From: a virus
Lineage: Duplodnaviria > Heunggongvirae > Uroviricota > Caudoviricetes
Strand: one strand, 5' to 3'
Virus record (IMG/VR): IMGVR_UViG_2737471828_000009
Coordinates: 1 to 31,064 of that record
Length of the DNA stretch: 31,064 nt
Part shown: one piece after another, positions 8,855 to 17,130 of the stretch
How positions within the stretch are numbered: the first letter of the stretch is position 1
Layout: the number at the start of each line of letters is the position of its first letter
Program-made: the position numbers and the translations under genes
The notes under the pieces: generated by a model
The model's database searches: none
What the model saw: only the letters and a program-made list of their open reading frames with translations
What the model was told of the DNA's origin: nothing

Positions 8855-9343
8855 ATGAGTCTATTAAATGACGTTCAGAAATTCATTGAAGCCCATCCGG
8901 GGTGTACTTCCGGAGACATTGCAGATGCTTTTGCTGGTTACTCACGGCAGCGCGTTCTGCAGTCAGCAAGCAAGTTACGTCAGAGTGGGCGTGTGGCTCA
9001 CCGTTGTGAAGGGGATACACGCAGACATTTCCCGCGCCTGACTGAGAGAGCGCAGGAGCCGGAACCACAACCAGTTCGTGAAACCAGACCTGTGCGCAAT
9101 TTCTATGTCGGCACTAACGATCCCCAGGTGATTTTGTGCCTGACCCGCCAGGCGGAAGAACTGGAGTCCAGGGGCTTATTTCGTCGTGCTGCAACCGTGT
9201 GGATGGCGGCATTCCGTGAAAGCCACTCCCAGCCAGAACGAAACAATTTTCTGGCGCGTCGTGAGCGGTGCTTACGGAAAAGCAGCAAGCGCGCTGCATC
9301 GGGTGAAGAGTGGTATCTGTCAGGGAATTACGTGGGGGCTTAA
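8855..9343 (+). CDS. Hypothetical protein with winged-helix-like N-terminus
   Basis: ATG at 8855 preceded by GGGGG; 162 aa; sits where a helicase loader (P or DnaC-like) would be expected but does not resemble either. Confidence 0.5.
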   Translation: MSLLNDVQKFIEAHPGCTSGDIADAFAGYSRQRVLQSASKLRQSGRVAHRCEGDTRRHFPRLTERAQEPEPQPVRETRPVRNFYVGTNDPQVILCLTRQAEELESRGLFRRAATVWMAAFRESHSQPERNNFLARRERCLRKSSKRAASGEEWYLSGNYVGA

Positions 9344-9996
9344 TGAGTAATAAATATTGCCAGGCGCTGGTGGAACTGCGGAACAAACCAGCCCATGAAC
9401 TGAAGGACGTGGGCGATCAGTGGCGCACGCCGGACAACATTTTCTGGGGAATTAACACCCTGTTTGGCCCGTTTGTTCTGGATCTGTTCACTGACGGTGA
9501 TAACGCCAAATGTGCTGCGTATTACACGGCGGAAGACAACGCGCTGGCGCATGACTGGTCAGAACGTCTTGCGGAGCTTAAAGGTGCTGCCTTTGGTAAT
9601 CCCCCATACAGCCGCGCCAGTCAGCATGAGGGGCAATACATCACCGGCATGCGTTACATCATGAAGCATGCCAGTGCCATGCGTGATAAGGGCGGGCGCT
9701 ATGTTTTCCTGATCAAAGCTGCCACCAGCGAAGTTTGGTGGCCGGAAGATGCAGACCATATTGCTTTTATTCGCGGGCGTATTGGTTTTGAACTGCCTGC
9801 CTGGTTTATCCCGAAGGATGAGAAGCAGGTGCCGACAGGAGCGTTCTTCGCTGGTGCTATTGCTGTTTTCGACAAGACCTGGAAGGGACCGGCAATCAGC
9901 TACATCGGGCGCGATGAACTTGAGGCATGTGGTGAGGCGTTTCTGGCGCAGGTTCGCCAGCAGGCAGAAAAACTTGTCAGGGAGATGGCGGCATGA
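9343..9996 (+). CDS. dam: Phage Dam-family DNA N6-adenine methyltransferase
   Basis: NPPY catalytic motif (FGNPPYS) and conserved WRTPDNIFW... N-terminus; start ATG overlaps the upstream stop (TAATG), preceded by GGGGG. Confidence 0.8.
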   Translation: MSNKYCQALVELRNKPAHELKDVGDQWRTPDNIFWGINTLFGPFVLDLFTDGDNAKCAAYYTAEDNALAHDWSERLAELKGAAFGNPPYSRASQHEGQYITGMRYIMKHASAMRDKGGRYVFLIKAATSEVWWPEDADHIAFIRGRIGFELPAWFIPKDEKQVPTGAFFAGAIAVFDKTWKGPAISYIGRDELEACGEAFLAQVRQQAEKLVREMAA

Positions 9997-11690: not shown

Positions 11691-12686
11691 GTGACCGTGA
11701 GAGCACTACTGACCCCTGAAATTGCCCCGCGTATGGGGATCGTATTGTTCAGACCCGGTTCAGAGCTGATGCCCCTGTTTATGCAGGGGCGTGTCCTGCT
11801 GGAGCCTGAGCCGGAACGTTATTCATCTTTCGCCAGTGGTGCCGTACCGGCGGCATCACAACCGCTGGCGGATGATCCTGCCGTTCGGGCCGTGTTCCGC
11901 AATGAGGCAGTGATCCGTCGTGCTGGTGGCGTGGAATGTCTTGAAAGCTGGTTACTTCGTGAAAAAGGCTGCCAGTGGCCTCATTCCGACTGGCACAGCG
12001 AGAACATGACAACAATGCGACACGCGCCGGGCGCAATCCGTCTGTGCTGGCACTGCGATAACCAGCTGCGCGATCAGTTCACGGAACGGCTGGAATCAAT
12101 GGCAACGGATAACTGTGCCCGCTGGGTGTTGTCTGTTGTGCGTCGGGATCTCGGTTTTGATGATAGTCACGTTGTGACAATGCCGGAACTGTGCTGGTGG
12201 CTGATTCGTAATGACCTGGCGGATGTCTTACCGGAAAGTGCAGCCCGTAAGGCACTGAGATTACCAAAGCCTGTTGTGCCGTCTGTCACCCGGGAAAGTG
12301 ACCTTGTGCCTTCGGCTCCTGCCACCAGCATCATCCAGGATAAGGCAAAAAAGGTGCTGGCGCTGAAAGTGGATCCGGAGTCGCCGGAGTCTTTTATGTT
12401 ACGCCCAAAACGTCGCCGCTGGGTTAATGAAAAGTACACGCGCTGGGTTAAGACACAGCCGTGTGCATGTTGTGGAAAGCCTGCTGATGATCCCCACCAC
12501 CTGATAGGCCACGGTCAGGGGGGAATGAGTACAAAAGCGCATGACCTCTTTGTGTTGCCTTTGTGCAGAAAGCATCACGACGAGCTGCATGCGGATACCG
12601 TGGCATTTGAAGAGAAGTATGGCTCCCAGCTGGAGCTGATATTTCGTTTTATCGATCGCGCGCTGGCAATTGGCGTGCTGGCCTGA
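11691..12686 (+). CDS. DUF968 (YdfU-like) protein with C-terminal HNH-like Cys/His motif
   Basis: C-terminal CACCGKPADDPHHLIGHGQGG ... CRKHHDELH motif typical of DUF968 proteins found next to Q in Qin/Rac-type prophages; start codon uncertain (GTG 11691 or 11697). Confidence 0.65.
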   Translation: MTVRALLTPEIAPRMGIVLFRPGSELMPLFMQGRVLLEPEPERYSSFASGAVPAASQPLADDPAVRAVFRNEAVIRRAGGVECLESWLLREKGCQWPHSDWHSENMTTMRHAPGAIRLCWHCDNQLRDQFTERLESMATDNCARWVLSVVRRDLGFDDSHVVTMPELCWWLIRNDLADVLPESAARKALRLPKPVVPSVTRESDLVPSAPATSIIQDKAKKVLALKVDPESPESFMLRPKRRRWVNEKYTRWVKTQPCACCGKPADDPHHLIGHGQGGMSTKAHDLFVLPLCRKHHDELHADTVAFEEKYGSQLELIFRFIDRALAIGVLA

Positions 12687-12704
12687 TTTTTTCGGAGAAA
12701 GGTG

Positions 12705-13067
12705 ATGCGTGATATTCAGATGGTTCTGGATCGTTGGGGAGCATGGGCGGCGAGTGATAGTTCAGGAGTAGATTATTCTCCTATAGCTGCTGGGTTTAAA
12801 GGGCTTCTTCCCTATACAAGCAAAACACGTCAGGCTTGTTCAGATAGTGATGCATTAATTATTGAAGGTTGTCTTGCACGTCTAAAGCAAAAAAGACCTG
12901 ATGAGCATTCGCTTCTTGTGGCCCATTACCTATACGGTATCTCTAAAAGAAAGCTCGCTAAAGCTCGCAAAAAGGATGAGAAAATAATACGCATTGAGAT
13001 ACAGATGGCTGAGGGATTTATAGAAGGTTGTCTAGCTATTCTAAATGTTAGCTTAGATATGGATTAA
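12705..13067 (+). CDS. Q: Late-gene antiterminator Q (QuuD/QuuQ-like small Q family)
   Basis: About 120-aa product in the position of Q, upstream of the lysis genes; family assignment from memory of the K-12 cryptic-prophage Q proteins; ATG 12705 preceded by GGAGA. Confidence 0.65.
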   Translation: MRDIQMVLDRWGAWAASDSSGVDYSPIAAGFKGLLPYTSKTRQACSDSDALIIEGCLARLKQKRPDEHSLLVAHYLYGISKRKLAKARKKDEKIIRIEIQMAEGFIEGCLAILNVSLDMD

Positions 13068-13082
13068 TATCTTGGTTTGGAT

Positions 13083-13106
13083 AAGCAGGTGTGCTTGCAC
13101 CTGCTT
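13083..13106. terminator. Perfect hairpin between convergent Q and membrane-protein genes
   Basis: AAGCAGGTG-tgcttg-CACCTGCTT (9-bp perfect stem) followed on the plus strand by AATATTATAT; likely limits read-through from Q into the antisense of the cargo cassette. Confidence 0.4.
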
Positions 13107-13110
13107 AATA

Positions 13111-13557
13111 TTATATGTGGGGTAATATCCAGTTTATTTTCCTCCAGGTACTTGCAAATGAAACTATTGATACGATCAGGGTCGAGAAACCATATAAGGT
13201 TAGGGCGAAATCAAGTCTTACAGAGGTAATGGTGATTTTTTCATTTATAAACATTGCTATCAGCGGGAAAATACATGCTAATATTAAGGTAACTCCCGTA
13301 GATAACAGGTTATGAATAATTTTAGGTAAAATCTTGTTTTGTTTTAAAGCAAAAATAATTCCATCAGTACTTGAACTTGCAGAACTGAAGATGGAAATAG
13401 CGGCCAATACAAAACCAAACAAAATGCCTGCCACCGTAGATAACACTCCGGCTGTACTTAAGATATCAGAGTGAGCCATAGGCGCTAGGTATTTCCCAAG
13501 CACCCAAGCTAACAGCCCACTGATAACTATGTTAATTAAAACTTTAATAAGCATAAT
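13111..13557 (-). CDS. Small integral membrane protein with four predicted TM helices (RexB-like architecture)
   Basis: About 148-150 aa; four hydrophobic segments (approximately residues 3-23, 34-59, 81-105, 117-137); AT-rich; 14-nt gap after the upstream gene; the start may be the third Met (AAGG at 6 nt spacing). Confidence 0.6.
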   Translation of the reverse strand: MMLIKVLINIVISGLLAWVLGKYLAPMAHSDILSTAGVLSTVAGILFGFVLAAISIFSSASSSTDGIIFALKQNKILPKIIHNLLSTGVTLILACIFPLIAMFINEKITITSVRLDFALTLYGFSTLIVSIVSFASTWRKINWILPHI

Positions 13558-13577
13558 CATCATCCTTAAAAATAAGA

Positions 13578-14510
13578 TCAGATTTCATATTGCTTTAAAT
13601 ACTGACCATGTTCAATTTTAGCACTGATCAAGGCAGTACGCACATCTGTTTCTTTTGCGTAGCCATCTTTTGTGTTAATGTTTTTTTCACTGATCAGAAC
13701 TTGATTGAGAAGACTCCTTGAATGAGTATTTTTAGGTTCAGTGACATTAGCTTTACGTAATAAGTGAGGAACTTTTTCTATTAATTCCTTTATTCCACTT
13801 TTTACTTCATCACTGAGATAACCACGGATTAATTTACGTTGCGATGCTCTACCTCTAAGTGATAGTTTTAAATGCGAACCGCCCATCCCAGCCATCATTT
13901 CAATCATACTTTTGGAAAATGAATTCGAAAGGTCATAATCCGTTGCGCTAAAATTACGTGGAGCGGCGAGTGTAATTTCACAGCTACGTAAAGTGCTTCC
14001 TGTTTCAAGTAGTTCTTTTACACTTTCTTTTTTCCAAATTGCCTCAAACGCTACAGGTTTGTTTTCTTCAGAAAAATTGAATAAAAGAAATGCTAAATCG
14101 GAAACTTTAGGTCCTAAATGATTTTGAGATAAAACAAGAATGTCTTTCTTATAGTAGTAAATAAAATAAGTGCGTTCGACTATATATTTTTTATCATCTA
14201 ACGGAATATTGTGCTCATCCCAATTTTCATCACCAATATAAGGTAAGTGGAAACCATCACGAGAGCATGATAGATAACCAAAATAGAACTCCGCCTGTGC
14301 GTCTTTTTCTAAGAATACAACCTTTAATTTTTTCTTATCAAACTCAGCGGTATAAGAATTTTGCGAAGGTGTAACAATGGTTGTATACATGTTGTCAAAT
14401 GCAAGTTGTGCATTTGATGTAGTTGACTTCGTTCCTGAGGAGCTTTGGAAGAAACCGATACGCATTTTTTTTTGTTTAGTTAGTGGCGCGGAAGTGGCTG
14501 TAGTAGTCAT
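13578..14510 (-). CDS. Soluble 310-aa protein, first gene of the counter-oriented two-gene cassette (candidate abortive-infection sensor, RexA-like architecture)
   Basis: ATG 14510 preceded by AAAGGG at about 8 nt; AT-rich; forms a tight operon with the downstream membrane protein; no catalytic motif recognised. Confidence 0.6.
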   Translation of the reverse strand: MTTTATSAPLTKQKKMRIGFFQSSSGTKSTTSNAQLAFDNMYTTIVTPSQNSYTAEFDKKKLKVVFLEKDAQAEFYFGYLSCSRDGFHLPYIGDENWDEHNIPLDDKKYIVERTYFIYYYKKDILVLSQNHLGPKVSDLAFLLFNFSEENKPVAFEAIWKKESVKELLETGSTLRSCEITLAAPRNFSATDYDLSNSFSKSMIEMMAGMGGSHLKLSLRGRASQRKLIRGYLSDEVKSGIKELIEKVPHLLRKANVTEPKNTHSRSLLNQVLISEKNINTKDGYAKETDVRTALISAKIEHGQYLKQYEI

Positions 14511-14810
14511 TAAAATTACCCTTTATTATCCTTTTGAATCAATGGGTTGTGATTTGTTAATGATCCTGGGTTCGTTGCATATGCATAATCTATCAAAAAA
14601 AACTTACGCGGTCCGCATTTTCTCGTTTACTGTGTTAAGAGTGGTTACTTCGCCACACAGCTTAAACCCGCCGTCGAGCGGTTTTTTTGTACCTGTAAAC
14701 CTGGTGCAGTACAGTAAACACGCTGGTGGTCGTGAATACTGACTTTTTATCTTGCTGGCTTTTTAGACAAGAGTTATTGGTATGTCATGTTAACCAGAAG
14801 GGAAAAAGAC

Positions 14811-15014
14811 ATGCTAAAACAGCAAGATATGACAGAAACCGCCGCCGCAGTCCTTCATTTCTTACCTGCTGACAAGTGGGTAACGCCACGCATGATGACG
14901 AGAACTACCGGAGTAAGCGAAGCCCGGTGCCAGTTAATACTGACTCAGTTAGTTCTGGCGGGTCTGGCGAAGGATAACGGCGGGTACGGGAATAAATTCA
15001 GACGCTGCCAGTAA
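14811..15014 (+). CDS. Small HTH/winged-helix-like protein upstream of the methyltransferase
   Basis: 67 aa from the ATG at 14811 (preceded by AAGGGA); HTH-like segment TRTTGVSEARCQLILTQLVLAG. Confidence 0.45.
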   Translation: MLKQQDMTETAAAVLHFLPADKWVTPRMMTRTTGVSEARCQLILTQLVLAGLAKDNGGYGNKFRRCQ

Positions 15015-15164
15015 TGGCGGTTTCCTGCTGTGAAAATGGGCGGCTGGTGGGTGTTGGTAGCACCTGCCAGCCATTCGCTCATGCTTACTGGTCACAAGCG
15101 AACCACGGCCCACTGCTTTAGCGCAAAAGCAGAGTGAGCCTACCAGAGTTACGCTTACTGATCC

Positions 15165-16226
15165 ATGAAAAATACTGTAAAAATAAACAGTGTTGATTTA
15201 ATCAACGCTGATTGCCTGCATTTTATTCAGTCCCTGCCTGATGATTCCATTGACCTGATTGTTACCGATCCGCCGTACTTCAAGGTGAAACCCAACGGCT
15301 GGGACAATCAGTGGAAAGGGGACGAAGATTACCTTAAGTGGCTGGACCACTGTCTGGCCCAGTTCTGGCGGGTGTTAAAGCCTGCCGGAAGCCTTTACCT
15401 GTTCTGTGGGCATCGCCTGGCATCTGATATTGAGATCATGATGCGTGAACGTTTCAACGTGCTTAACCATATCATCTGGGCGAAGCCGTCCGGACGTTGG
15501 AATGGGTGTAATAAAGAAAGTCTGCGCGCATATTTTCCTGCCACAGAGCGCGTTCTGTTTGCTGAACATTACCAGGGGCCATATCGCGGCAAAAGTGACG
15601 GCTATGCGGCAAAAGAAAGGGAACTCAAACAGCATATAATGGCACCGCTGATATCGTATTTCAGGGATGCTCGTGCCGAACTGGGTATAACGGCAAAACA
15701 AATTGCCGAAGTCACAGGTAAGAAAAATATGGTTTCCCACTGGTTTGGTGCCAGTCAGTGGCAGTTGCCGAATGAGGCTGACTATCGGAAGTTACAGGCA
15801 CTTTTTTCCCGTATAGCGGCAGAGAAGTTTCAGGAACAACAGCTGGAACAACCACACCACCAACTGGTGGCATCTTATGATTCACTGAATCGCAAATATT
15901 CTGAATTGCTGGATGAGTTTAAATCTCTCCGTCGCTATTTCTCCGTATCAGTCTCCGTGCCTTATACCGATGTCTGGATGCATAAACCCGTTCAGTTCTA
16001 CCCGGGCAAACATCCGTGTGAGAAACCGGCGGATATGCTCAGGCAAATAATCAATGCCAGTAGTCGACCTGGCGATCTGGTTGCTGATTTCTTTATGGGA
16101 TCCGGTTCCACAATAAAAGCAGCAATGGCGCTGGGGCGTCGGGCATTAGGTGTTGAGCTTGAGACAGAACGGTTCAATAAGACCATTCAGGAAATCAGTA
16201 TGTTATCAGCAAATACAATTTTGTGA
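15165..16226 (+). CDS. Orphan DNA methyltransferase (beta-class N6-adenine/N4-cytosine type)
   Basis: N-terminal catalytic motif IV DPPY (LIVTDPPYF) and C-terminal AdoMet motif I (FFMGSGST); no restriction endonuclease gene nearby. Confidence 0.8.
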   Translation: MKNTVKINSVDLINADCLHFIQSLPDDSIDLIVTDPPYFKVKPNGWDNQWKGDEDYLKWLDHCLAQFWRVLKPAGSLYLFCGHRLASDIEIMMRERFNVLNHIIWAKPSGRWNGCNKESLRAYFPATERVLFAEHYQGPYRGKSDGYAAKERELKQHIMAPLISYFRDARAELGITAKQIAEVTGKKNMVSHWFGASQWQLPNEADYRKLQALFSRIAAEKFQEQQLEQPHHQLVASYDSLNRKYSELLDEFKSLRRYFSVSVSVPYTDVWMHKPVQFYPGKHPCEKPADMLRQIINASSRPGDLVADFFMGSGSTIKAAMALGRRALGVELETERFNKTIQEISMLSANTIL

Positions 16227-16473
16227 ATTAACTCAATTATTAGTGGGACATCTGTTACGTATAATCCGTAACAACACGGTGCATCCTGCAATGTTGCAGG
16301 GCTGATGTGGTGGTTTGTGCATAAGTTGCAAAGGATTTGCTTCGTTAATTCATCGTTGACGCAAGCGAGCCACGGTTGACCACGCCAAAGGCTCATCGGT
16401 AGAAATCCGACACCGTGTCGCCATAATCACTCACTTGTTGTTTTACCCATGTTTTTTGGATTACCTGTTATTG

Positions 16474-16508
16474 CTGTCAGACGATTGCCATCGTCTGGCA
16501 GTTTTTTT
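16474..16508 (+). terminator. Strong intrinsic terminator just upstream of the holin gene (candidate tR')
   Basis: 11-bp stem CTGTCAGACGA / TCGTCTGGCAG (one G-U pair), 6-nt loop, followed by T7 (16502..16508). Confidence 0.65.
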
Positions 16509-16565
16509 GCGTCATCCCCCCAATTTTCTGAATATAACGCCACCGGATGATTCGGAGGTGAGGTT

Positions 16566-16781
16566 GTGAGTCCAATGGACAAAATTTCAACGGGTATTGC
16601 CTATGGTACTTCTGCAGGCAGTGCCGGCTACTGGTTTTTACAGTGGCTTGATCAGGTCAGCCCGTCACAGTGGGCGGCAATTGGTGTACTGGGAAGTCTG
16701 GCACTGGGCTTTCTGACTTATCTGACGAATCTGTATTTCAAAATCAGAGAAGACAGAAGAAAGGCTGCGAGAGGAGAGTAA
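16566..16781 (+). CDS. S: Class II pinholin, phage 21 S-type
   Basis: 71 aa, [31 protein letters not shown]...[13 protein letters not shown] closely matches phage 21 S as recalled; two in-frame starts (GTG 16566 and ATG 16575) preceded by GGAGG. Confidence 0.85.
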
Positions 16782-16785
16782 TATA

Positions 16786-17130
16786 ATGGCCCAAAACTAT
16801 GAAATGATTGTGAAAGGGATCCGCAATTTTGAGAATAAAGTTACGGTAACTTTAGCATTACAGGACAAAGAACGCTTTGACGGTGAAATTTTTGACCTGG
16901 ACATCTCGCTGGACCGTGTTGAAGGTGCCGCGCTGGAGTTTTATGAGGCAGCAGCCAGAAGGAGCATCAGACAGGTCTTCCTGGATGTTGCTGCCGGGTT
17001 ATGTGGAGGGGATGAGCAGTCGCCGGAAAAGCGCCCCATAATTTTAGAGGCGCAGAGTGTGTGGATAACCTACAAAGGAAAACTGCCGGGAAGAATTACT
17101 GGTTCACTGAAGACTCCGCCGAAATGGTAA
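16786..17130 (+). CDS. Hypothetical protein between holin and endolysin (possibly YdfR/DUF1327-like)
   Basis: 114-aa ORF in the same position as ydfR between holin and lysozyme genes of the K-12 Qin prophage; family assignment from memory only. Confidence 0.45.
   Translation: MAQNYEMIVKGIRNFENKVTVTLALQDKERFDGEIFDLDISLDRVEGAALEFYEAAARRSIRQVFLDVAAGLCGGDEQSPEKRPIILEAQSVWITYKGKLPGRITGSLKTPPKW

Follow-up and report, generated by a model that had tools for sequence, protein, structure and literature searches.

A late-operon module of lambdoid phages combines an M.EcoGII-type adenine methyltransferase with a conserved leader

M.EcoGII is a prophage-encoded methyltransferase of E. coli O104:H4 that methylates adenine regardless of the surrounding sequence and stays silent while cells grow normally (PMC5778455). 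Together with M.EcoGI, also a prophage enzyme of strain C227-11, it belongs to what has been called “a very large family” in E. coli prophages (PMC5778455). Clones expressing M.EcoGII constitutively are sick, slow-growing and unstable; its methylation blocked 12 of 12 tested restriction enzymes with 6-bp sites, and it also methylates riboadenosine in RNA and in DNA:RNA hybrids (PMC5778455). In nanopore data, methylation by M.EcoGII and its variants depends little on sequence context, and rates on both DNA and RNA have been measured for M.EcoGII, Anc291 and SUPREM (PMC11551740). M.EcoGII acts about 100-fold more slowly on RNA than on DNA (0.12 versus 11.12 x 10^-3 µM S-adenosylhomocysteine per µM adenosine per min; Table S3 of PMC11551740), and its ancestral relatives have higher RNA activity; its target-recognition domain is a helical bundle with a helix-turn-helix at residues ~160-237 (PMC11551740). 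Homologues in prophages of Shiga toxin-producing E. coli (STEC) are predicted to be non-specific, and no methylation motif of theirs was seen in growing cells (PMC6602927). M.EcoGII has become a common reagent for footprinting chromatin and for writing N6-methyladenine (m6A) on DNA and RNA, but very little has been reported on its natural role and control other than its prophage location, its silence in lysogens and the harm it does when expressed. Our literature search on the expression of its homologues after prophage induction returned nothing specific. Here we analyze a methyltransferase locus in a 31,064-nucleotide stretch of a lambdoid prophage (IMG/VR record IMGVR_UViG_2737471828_000009; “the window” denotes this whole stretch), in which a 353-amino-acid methyltransferase gene follows a 135-nucleotide leader and a gene for a small, predicted winged-helix protein, all on the plus strand. 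The explanation we favor, and regard as probable, is that the enzyme is an M.EcoGII orthologue carried in a terminator-insulated, late-operon anti-restriction module under the control of the leader.

The closest functional parallel is com-mom of phage Mu, where the anti-restriction DNA-modification enzyme acts broadly, does harm and is silent in lysogens, and where a small open reading frame (ORF) directly precedes its gene, an arrangement that the present module appears to share. In Mu the start region of the modification gene can also be held in an RNA helix, as is predicted here, and Com binds a leader hairpin and opens the mom start. Com is, however, a zinc finger whose gene overlaps mom, whereas the module has no small zinc-finger activator: its small protein is a predicted winged helix with two conserved cysteines, ends 150 nucleotides upstream of the methyltransferase, and is absent from a quarter of the genome loci. 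The product of Mom, moreover, is an acetamido/carbamoyl adenine adduct and not m6A. Controller (C) proteins of restriction-modification systems resemble the winged-helix protein in being encoded by a small DNA-binding-type gene directly upstream of a methyltransferase gene and in the same orientation; they differ in having an Xre-type helix-turn-helix and in timing the expression of an endonuclease, whereas the protein here is a predicted winged helix without an HTH_3 or Xre match and without an accompanying endonuclease. Dam-type orphan methyltransferases, including M.EcoGV and M.EcoVT2 of Shiga toxin (Stx) phages and the enzyme encoded at 9343-9996 of the window, are likewise adenine methyltransferases found in lambdoid prophages, with a presumed role in protecting phage DNA, but they belong to PF05869 rather than PF01555, have GATC-specific relatives, and lie in the early nin region instead of the late operon. 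Finally, late-operon morons such as stx of the Stx phages occupy the same slot between Q/pR' and the lysis genes and are expressed by Q antitermination, as we infer for the module. Unlike stx-type morons, the module would carry a cargo that serves the phage's own DNA and not host virulence, and it has a conserved leader of its own.

The methyltransferase and its late-operon setting

The module and the elements that frame it are as follows.

12702 to 13067, plus strand: antiterminator Q of the QuuD type (PF06530, E=4.4e-52)
14631 to 14659, plus strand: conserved block TGTGTTAAGAGTGGTTACTTCGCCACACA, common to aligned loci with the same Q
14664 to 14690, plus strand: intrinsic terminator from a terminator scan, a GC stem followed by T7
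14811 to 15014, plus strand: 67-amino-acid predicted winged-helix protein, phrog_331 (an alternative start at 14787 gives 75 amino acids)
15004 to 15028, plus strand: terminator-like hairpin with the winged-helix stop codon in its loop, followed by a T-rich run (found by sequence inspection)
15030 to 15164, plus strand: conserved non-coding structured leader of 135 nucleotides, defined by conservation, covariation and minimum free energy (MFE) z-scores
15165 to 16226, plus strand: M.EcoGII-family beta-class N6-adenine methyltransferase of 353 amino acids (PF01555)
16473 to 16512, plus strand: strong intrinsic terminator from a terminator scan, a 13-bp stem followed by T7, between the methyltransferase and holin genes

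A sequence-only reading of this DNA had recognized, in the interval from Q to the lysis genes, a further orphan methyltransferase of the beta class, and this assignment is sound. The 353-amino-acid protein matches PF01555 (N6_N4_Mtase) over residues 29-338 with an E-value of 7.6e-42 and a score of 144.2 bits, against a cut-off of 26.7. It carries DPPY at residues 35-38 (within TDPPYF, 34-39) and FMGSG at 310-314 (within FFMGSGS, 309-315); with motif IV thus N-terminal and motif I C-terminal, the motifs are in beta-class order. Its relatives in the PDB, which align in two segments, are 8urk, M.RsrI, CcrM and M.MboIIA.

Comparison with M.EcoGII places the enzyme more precisely. Over the full length, 279 of 348 aligned residues are identical (80.2%), and identity across the target-recognition region (residues 160-237) is 75.6%. 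The protein is 88.7% identical to the reconstructed relative Anc291, 86.7% to Anc289 and 70.2% to SUPREM (Anc284); all of these values are slight underestimates, since the reference sequences were read by optical character recognition from Supplementary Table S1 of PMC11551740. By sequence, the window enzyme sits within the clade spanned by M.EcoGII, Anc291 and SUPREM, and we regard it as orthologous to M.EcoGII, the E. coli prophage enzyme that makes N6-methyladenine without sequence specificity. Its modified motif is very probably any adenine. With M.EcoGII and M.EcoGI it shares the beta-class architecture, an N-terminal DPPY, a central target-recognition region (predicted to be helical in the window enzyme), a C-terminal FxGxG, a length of about 350 amino acids and a prophage location. 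It differs from M.EcoGII at about 20% of residues (24% in the recognition region) and in a mosaic variant of the C-terminal ~14 residues. These last ~14 codons (~16175-16226; …NKTIQEISMLSANTIL) are unlike the common tail (…NQTVKEINELVGK), and DNA similarity to most phages ends at ~16184, which indicates a mosaic recombination joint inside the 3' end of the gene.

The gene as such is a member of a known, ordinary and very common family. We identified more than 3000 homologues across Enterobacterales (E<=1e-10), and a search of 5426 complete E. coli genomes found the module DNA (14660-16226) in 1474, for the most part at 95-99% identity. Phages mEp460, cdtI and Ayreon carry it too, as do Stx1a- and Stx2c-converting phages. 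The locus shows the M.EcoGII family traveling as a defined late-operon module of lambdoid phages, Stx phages included.

The earlier reading's statement that neither methyltransferase of the prophage has a partner endonuclease also holds, as the adjoining genes contain no restriction endonuclease. Beside the 353-amino-acid enzyme we found no nuclease domain and no PADLOC family, and its neighbors differ between loci. A conventional Type II restriction-modification system would have an adjoining cognate endonuclease, and this one does not.

The order Q, reverse-strand cargo, winged-helix gene, methyltransferase gene and holin gene recurs in loci L003-L006 and in RefSeq annotation. The TGTGTTAAGAGTGGTTACTTCGCCACACA block is kept in L003, L005 and L024, which have the same Q family, and is absent in mEp460, which has a different Q. 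The terminator at 14664-14690, by comparison, is conserved across Q types, and in mEp460 only this terminator and the part downstream of it are common to the window. Matches to phage DNA begin at window positions 14633-14666, and in phage Ayreon terminators are annotated at both equivalent places (14664-14690 and the methyltransferase-holin gap). The terminator forms the left edge of the mobile module and probably corresponds to tR'. In L005 only 13 nucleotides separate Q from the reverse-strand cargo, so pR' is not there and must lie downstream of the cargo; judged by its distribution, the TGTGTTAAGAGTGGTTACTTCGCCACACA block may be part of this late promoter or of the initially transcribed region.

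The leader and the winged-helix gene

Conservation of the 135 nucleotides upstream of the methyltransferase gene extends from Escherichia to Yersinia, Providencia and Morganella, and loci that lack the winged-helix gene show it too. Mean identity to the window is 80% in the leader, compared with 46.5% at third codon positions and 83% at first and second positions of the adjoining gene, and the contrast with third positions rules out a neutral spacer. We also rejected a small ORF: the ATG at 15036 gives 3-43 codons in shifting frames, and 24 of 57 sequences reach a stop after 7 codons. A covariance model locates a single leader in each locus, in every case directly against the methyltransferase ATG, and no further copy in the 31-kb window. 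Similarly, when viral contigs were scanned with a sequence pattern, the methyltransferase started 46-48 nucleotides past the match in 117 of 120 loci, and contig ends truncate two of the remaining three. Among the upstream sequences of 80 loci, a hairpin and T-tract like that at 15004-15028 also precedes the leader where the winged-helix gene is missing.

Xenorhabdus and Photorhabdus (L060-L065, L068-L069, L072-L078 and L081-L084) have a shortened leader of ~90 nucleotides, in which the P2 hairpin and the start of P3 (defined below) are kept and the remainder is replaced by a different hairpin. Most of these short-leader loci carry the winged-helix gene, L081 being the exception.

Rfam 15 gave no match on the leader at gathering thresholds in a scan of the whole window, and none at E<=10 for 15030-15164. 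A permissive Rfam scan of 14560-15260 returned two candidates, both off the leader and both rejected: STnc130, which scored 23 bits versus 55 and lies on the minus strand upstream of the winged-helix gene, and a snoRNA that is a chance match. A Trp_leader match in L009 covers the terminator hairpin only. A full-text literature search with three 16-mers from the leader found no match, and the M.EcoGII papers we consulted do not mention the upstream winged-helix gene or the leader. A dedicated structured leader with a frequent winged-helix companion thus seems not to have been described previously.

Comparative analysis indicates two alternative sets of helices. State A comprises P1 (15037-41:15108-12, UGGGC:GCCCA), P2 (15042-53:15061-72, a 10-12-bp hairpin), P3 (15074-79:15097-102, UUCGCU:AGCGAA) and P4 (15114-19:15126-31, GCUUU:AAAGC). 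State B comprises 15036-41:15077-82 and 15107-13:15134-40, together with a start-region helix in which 15090-94 and 15096-100 pair with 15152-56 and 15159-63. The two states are mutually exclusive, and the start-region helix competes with the covarying P3.

Across 93 distinct sequences, the nested four-helix fold has 88.6% of cells paired, whereas sliding the partners gives 28-51%; both members change in 17 pairs, and the observed values were not reached in any of 500 shuffles. Counts from MAFFT alignments alone gave similar results. Compensated variation occurs at 11 of the 12 P2 pairs, one P3 position is CG in 36 sequences, AU in 24, UA in 20 and UG in 5, and the Yersinia P3 is a perfect 9-bp helix. 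In state B, AUGGGC:GCUCAU is 99% paired and shows pair-preserving changes only. The start-region helix, in which G(G/A)UCA and AAGC pair with GCUU and with UGAUC directly 5' of the AUG, is 89-90% paired compared with 19-42% for slid partners, with compensatory changes in the Providencia group and in Ewingella. Single-sequence MFE folds take up the start-pairing state in Salmonella, Providencia and Ewingella and the P3 state in Yersinia; MFE z-scores for these four range from -2.9 to -4.1, and the window leader has a z-score of -2.8. The methyltransferase start codon has no Shine-Dalgarno sequence of the GGAGG type. We take the conserved UGAUC(C/U) before the AUG to be complementary to GGAUCA in the 3' tail of 16S rRNA.

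The small gene upstream of the leader can be read as 75 amino acids from the ATG at 14787 or as 67 from the ATG at 14811. The 67-residue form has a Shine-Dalgarno-like AAGGG ~8 nucleotides upstream, is the one annotated in mEp460 and RefSeq, and is common to the homologues; the ORF is best read this way. The sequence-only reading had reported a 67-amino-acid helix-turn-helix-like ORF here. A small DNA-binding-type gene is indeed present, but the start given (14787) and the length (67) belong to two different start codons, and the predicted fold is a winged helix. The AlphaFold2 model (predicted local distance difference test score, pLDDT, 86.8) shows an H1-strand-H2-H3-hairpin layout with the hairpin as wing, and Foldseek aligns it to winged helices with template modeling (TM) scores of 0.76-0.82 at weak E-values (~3e-3). 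Among these structural relatives are IclR N-terminal domains, the Z-alpha domain of ADAR1 (TM 0.82), TrmBL2, the mRNA-binding domain of SelB, and PefI. The protein matches phrog_331 (E=4.6e-26), and searches against Pfam, NCBIfam, PADLOC and a PDB sequence profile gave no significant match, including none to Xre or HTH_3. Overall, the small protein is predicted to be a winged helix and not of the Xre type.

Homologues down to ~50% identity occur in Escherichia, Salmonella, Klebsiella, Kosakonia and Pantoea, and more distant ones in Providencia, Xenorhabdus and Photorhabdus; some carry the NCBI name “TrmB family”. In a profile search, a homologue lies directly upstream of the methyltransferase gene in 54 of 78 usable genome loci and on 99 of 115 viral contigs, while 24 of the 78 genome loci keep the methyltransferase without it. 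The winged-helix gene is thus a frequent but dispensable partner. The suggestion that the small protein might be a restriction-modification controller is not supported by these data: the model is a winged helix without an Xre or HTH_3 match, the locus has no endonuclease, and the gene is missing from those 24 methyltransferase loci. Because the predicted fold is not a zinc finger and the gene is dispensable in many loci, a Com-like role is hypothetical, as are the alternative roles of a DNA-binding regulator and of an m6A-DNA binder.

Two segments of the protein, MLKQQDMTETA at the N-terminus (14811-14843, codons 1-11) and RCQLILTQL in helix 3 (14925-14951, codons 39-47), are invariant in the homologues even at 50% overall identity. 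Some homologues (P0172-P0174) are chimeric, with the N-terminal half of one subtype joined to the C-terminal half of another. The invariant segments and the chimeras suggest intragenic recombination or a constraint at the nucleotide level. Before the gene, the untranslated stretch 14745-14810 contains the invariant blocks CTTGCTG … GAGTTAT..GTATGTCA.G … AAGG.AAAAAGACATG in Escherichia, Kluyvera and Salmonella, and these do not fit a sigma-70 promoter.

Proposed control of the module and rival explanations

The module is self-contained and runs in the order terminator, optional winged-helix gene, hairpin/terminator, 135-nucleotide leader, methyltransferase gene and terminator; it lies between Q, with the probable pR'/tR', and the holin gene. 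We propose that the harmful enzyme is kept off in the lysogen by the terminators on either side, by a start codon lacking a normal Shine-Dalgarno sequence, and by the start-pairing fold of the leader. Upon induction, RNA polymerase modified by Q would pass the terminators, and the methyltransferase would be made late. It would then methylate adenines of progeny DNA in many sequence contexts, such that the packaged genome would be protected from most adenine-sensitive Type I, II and III restriction in the next host. Silence in the lysogen is known from M.EcoGI, M.EcoGII and the STEC homologues, and the window enzyme may share it. Broad anti-restriction had already been suggested for this prophage and appears to be the best reading, strengthened by the 80% identity to the non-specific M.EcoGII. 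The leader and terminators would offer a testable answer to how a genome-wide adenine methylase stays off until progeny DNA is made, and the locus provides a candidate function for phrog_331, a very common phage family.

As for the mechanism of the leader, we put forward only tentatively, and with more doubt than confidence, that it represents a kind of cis-regulatory leader RNA not described before, one dedicated to methyltransferases of the M.EcoGII type. The leader would act as a bistable switch between P3 (UUCGCU:AGCGAA) and the start-pairing helix, with the winged-helix protein as a trans-acting partner (a functional analogue of Com with a different fold) or alternatively as an m6A-DNA binder.

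Several observations weigh against the proposed reading. Loci L033 and L047 have the methyltransferase without a recognizable leader. Wobble counts leave the strand of the folded leader undecided: P2 has 62 G.U versus 5 A.C, which favors the plus strand, while P3 has 50 C.A versus 5 G.U. A single clade (Providencia/Morganella) accounts for several of the compensatory changes, and the independent events are therefore fewer than the cells counted. Shuffling the upstream sequence raises the unpaired probability of the start region from 0.35 in native leaders to 0.46, and 23.5% of the shuffles are as low as the native value; the predicted occlusion of the start region is therefore in the expected direction but modest. 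Q-dependent expression of the methyltransferase is deduced from the position of its gene, and the enzyme's activity, specificity and expression are extrapolated from its relatives. The 20% divergence from M.EcoGII, part of it within the target-recognition region, might in principle have brought back a degree of specificity. Finally, the AlphaFold2 model of the methyltransferase, built from 20 close homologues, has an overall pLDDT of 59.5 and is too poor for fold comparison; in this poor model the target-recognition region has helices at 147-173, 177-184, 190-194 and 204-223, with a regional pLDDT of 60-80.

We considered four other explanations, the least improbable of which concerns the leader. 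Here the winged-helix protein would be a transcription factor acting on the methyltransferase gene or on its own gene, and the 135 nucleotides would be mainly operator or promoter DNA rather than RNA. The fold does resemble the DNA-binding domains of IclR and TrmB, an invariant recognition helix would suit an invariant target, and the wobble statistics leave a folded plus-strand RNA unproven. The 135 nucleotides are, however, no less conserved where the winged-helix gene is missing (24 genome loci and 16 viral loci), the compensatory changes in P2 and P3 keep pairing and not sequence, and no sigma-70-like promoter is predicted in the leader; we regard this explanation as unlikely. Two further alternatives concern what the enzyme modifies. 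Orphan methyltransferases such as Dam and CcrM regulate genes, and the earlier reading had raised epigenetic control as an alternative. A sequence-specific enzyme controlling host or phage genes in the lysogen would fit a recognition region only 75.6% identical to that of M.EcoGII, but all tested enzymes of the clade (M.EcoGII, Anc291 and SUPREM) methylate both DNA and RNA with little dependence on context, the family is silent in growing lysogens, and the gene sits between terminators in the late operon, which together make this role improbable. That the relevant substrate is instead RNA, either host or phage transcripts late in infection, is more improbable still: M.EcoGII methylates riboadenosine and the ancestral relatives do so more actively, but its RNA rate is ~100-fold below its DNA rate and its DNA methylation blocked every restriction enzyme in the 12-enzyme panel.

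The last alternative, to which we give almost no credence, makes the methyltransferase the modification half of a restriction-modification or self/non-self system, with the neighboring DUF6731 and membrane-protein genes (13111-14510) as the effector. The cassette and the module are physically adjacent, and the cassette is low in GC and has the look of defense cargo. It is found, however, in 18 of 5426 E. coli genomes compared with 1474 for the methyltransferase module, and other cargo lies beside the same module in L003-L006. Moreover, the cassette is on the opposite strand, the terminator and the probable pR' stand between it and the module, and it contains no nuclease or PADLOC family that we could find. 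The functional link between methyltransferase and cassette that the sequence-only reading had raised is thereby contradicted. The question of a second methyltransferase has a mostly ordinary outcome: a known, common family that is unrelated to the neighboring cassette.

Neighboring genes, cargo slot and Chi sites

Two further features of the window bear on the comparisons above.

9343 to 9996, plus strand: Dam-family methyltransferase, the first of the prophage (PF05869, E=2e-45; NPPY at residue 86)
13111 to 14510, minus strand: low-GC cargo (GC 0.34-0.37) encoding a 150-amino-acid membrane protein and a 310-amino-acid DUF6731 protein (PF20505)

The Dam-family enzyme with its NPPY motif is as the earlier reading had described it. 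On the plus strand the region carries, in this order, DUF968/HNH (HNHc_6; 11691-12686), Q (12702-13067), a P21-type holin (16566-16781), a DUF1327 gene, lysozyme and Rz, with the reverse-strand cargo and the methyltransferase module between Q and the holin. Other neighbors of the two methyltransferase genes are PerC, a LexA-like protein, RusA and KilA-N, and the window contains no tRNA genes. The DUF1327 (YdfR-like) gene at 16786-17130 lies between holin and lysozyme, an arrangement also found in phage mEp460.

The slot between Q and the probable late promoter (13068-14663) is a cargo hotspot with reverse-strand, low-GC inserts that vary among prophages collinear in other respects. Among loci of the same Q family, L003, L004 and L006 carry a 483-amino-acid AAA_15/AAA_21 ATPase in this slot, and L005 carries a pair of 182 and 308 amino acids. 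The winged-helix gene, a 149-nucleotide spacer and the methyltransferase gene stay constant across loci while the slot cargo changes; this exchange of cargo and the differing abundance of cassette and module indicate that the two are independent insertions. The inserts look like candidate defense genes. PADLOC assigns no family to the inserts here or in L003-L006, and NCBIfam gives only noise for the DUF6731 cassette; with no PADLOC match, we rejected membership of that cassette in a known defense system. In the 43 nucleotides between the convergent Q and 150-amino-acid cargo genes, a perfect 11-bp hairpin at 13082-13107, TAAGCAGGTGT-GCTT-GCACCTGCTTA, is probably a bidirectional terminator that closes both genes.

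The Chi sequence GCTGGTGG occurs 12 times in the 31 kb (10 on the plus strand and 2 on the minus strand), where ~1 is expected, and 0 of 100 shuffles reached 12.

817, 4185, 7213, 9366, 10618, 11922, 12193, 14722, 15043 and 17892, plus strand: Chi sites
9722 and 12322, minus strand: Chi sites

Related loci show the same enrichment and strand bias, with 347 plus-strand and 83 minus-strand copies in 676 kb. One Chi copy forms the 5' arm of leader hairpin P2, and another lies 90 nucleotides upstream of the winged-helix gene. Within the methyltransferase gene, a palindromic double Chi, CCACCAGCTGGTGG, which reads as overlapping copies on both strands, covers 15856-15869 in the codons for PHHQLV; it is conserved at +692 to +705 in ~35 related loci, where it encodes an invariant HHQLV motif.

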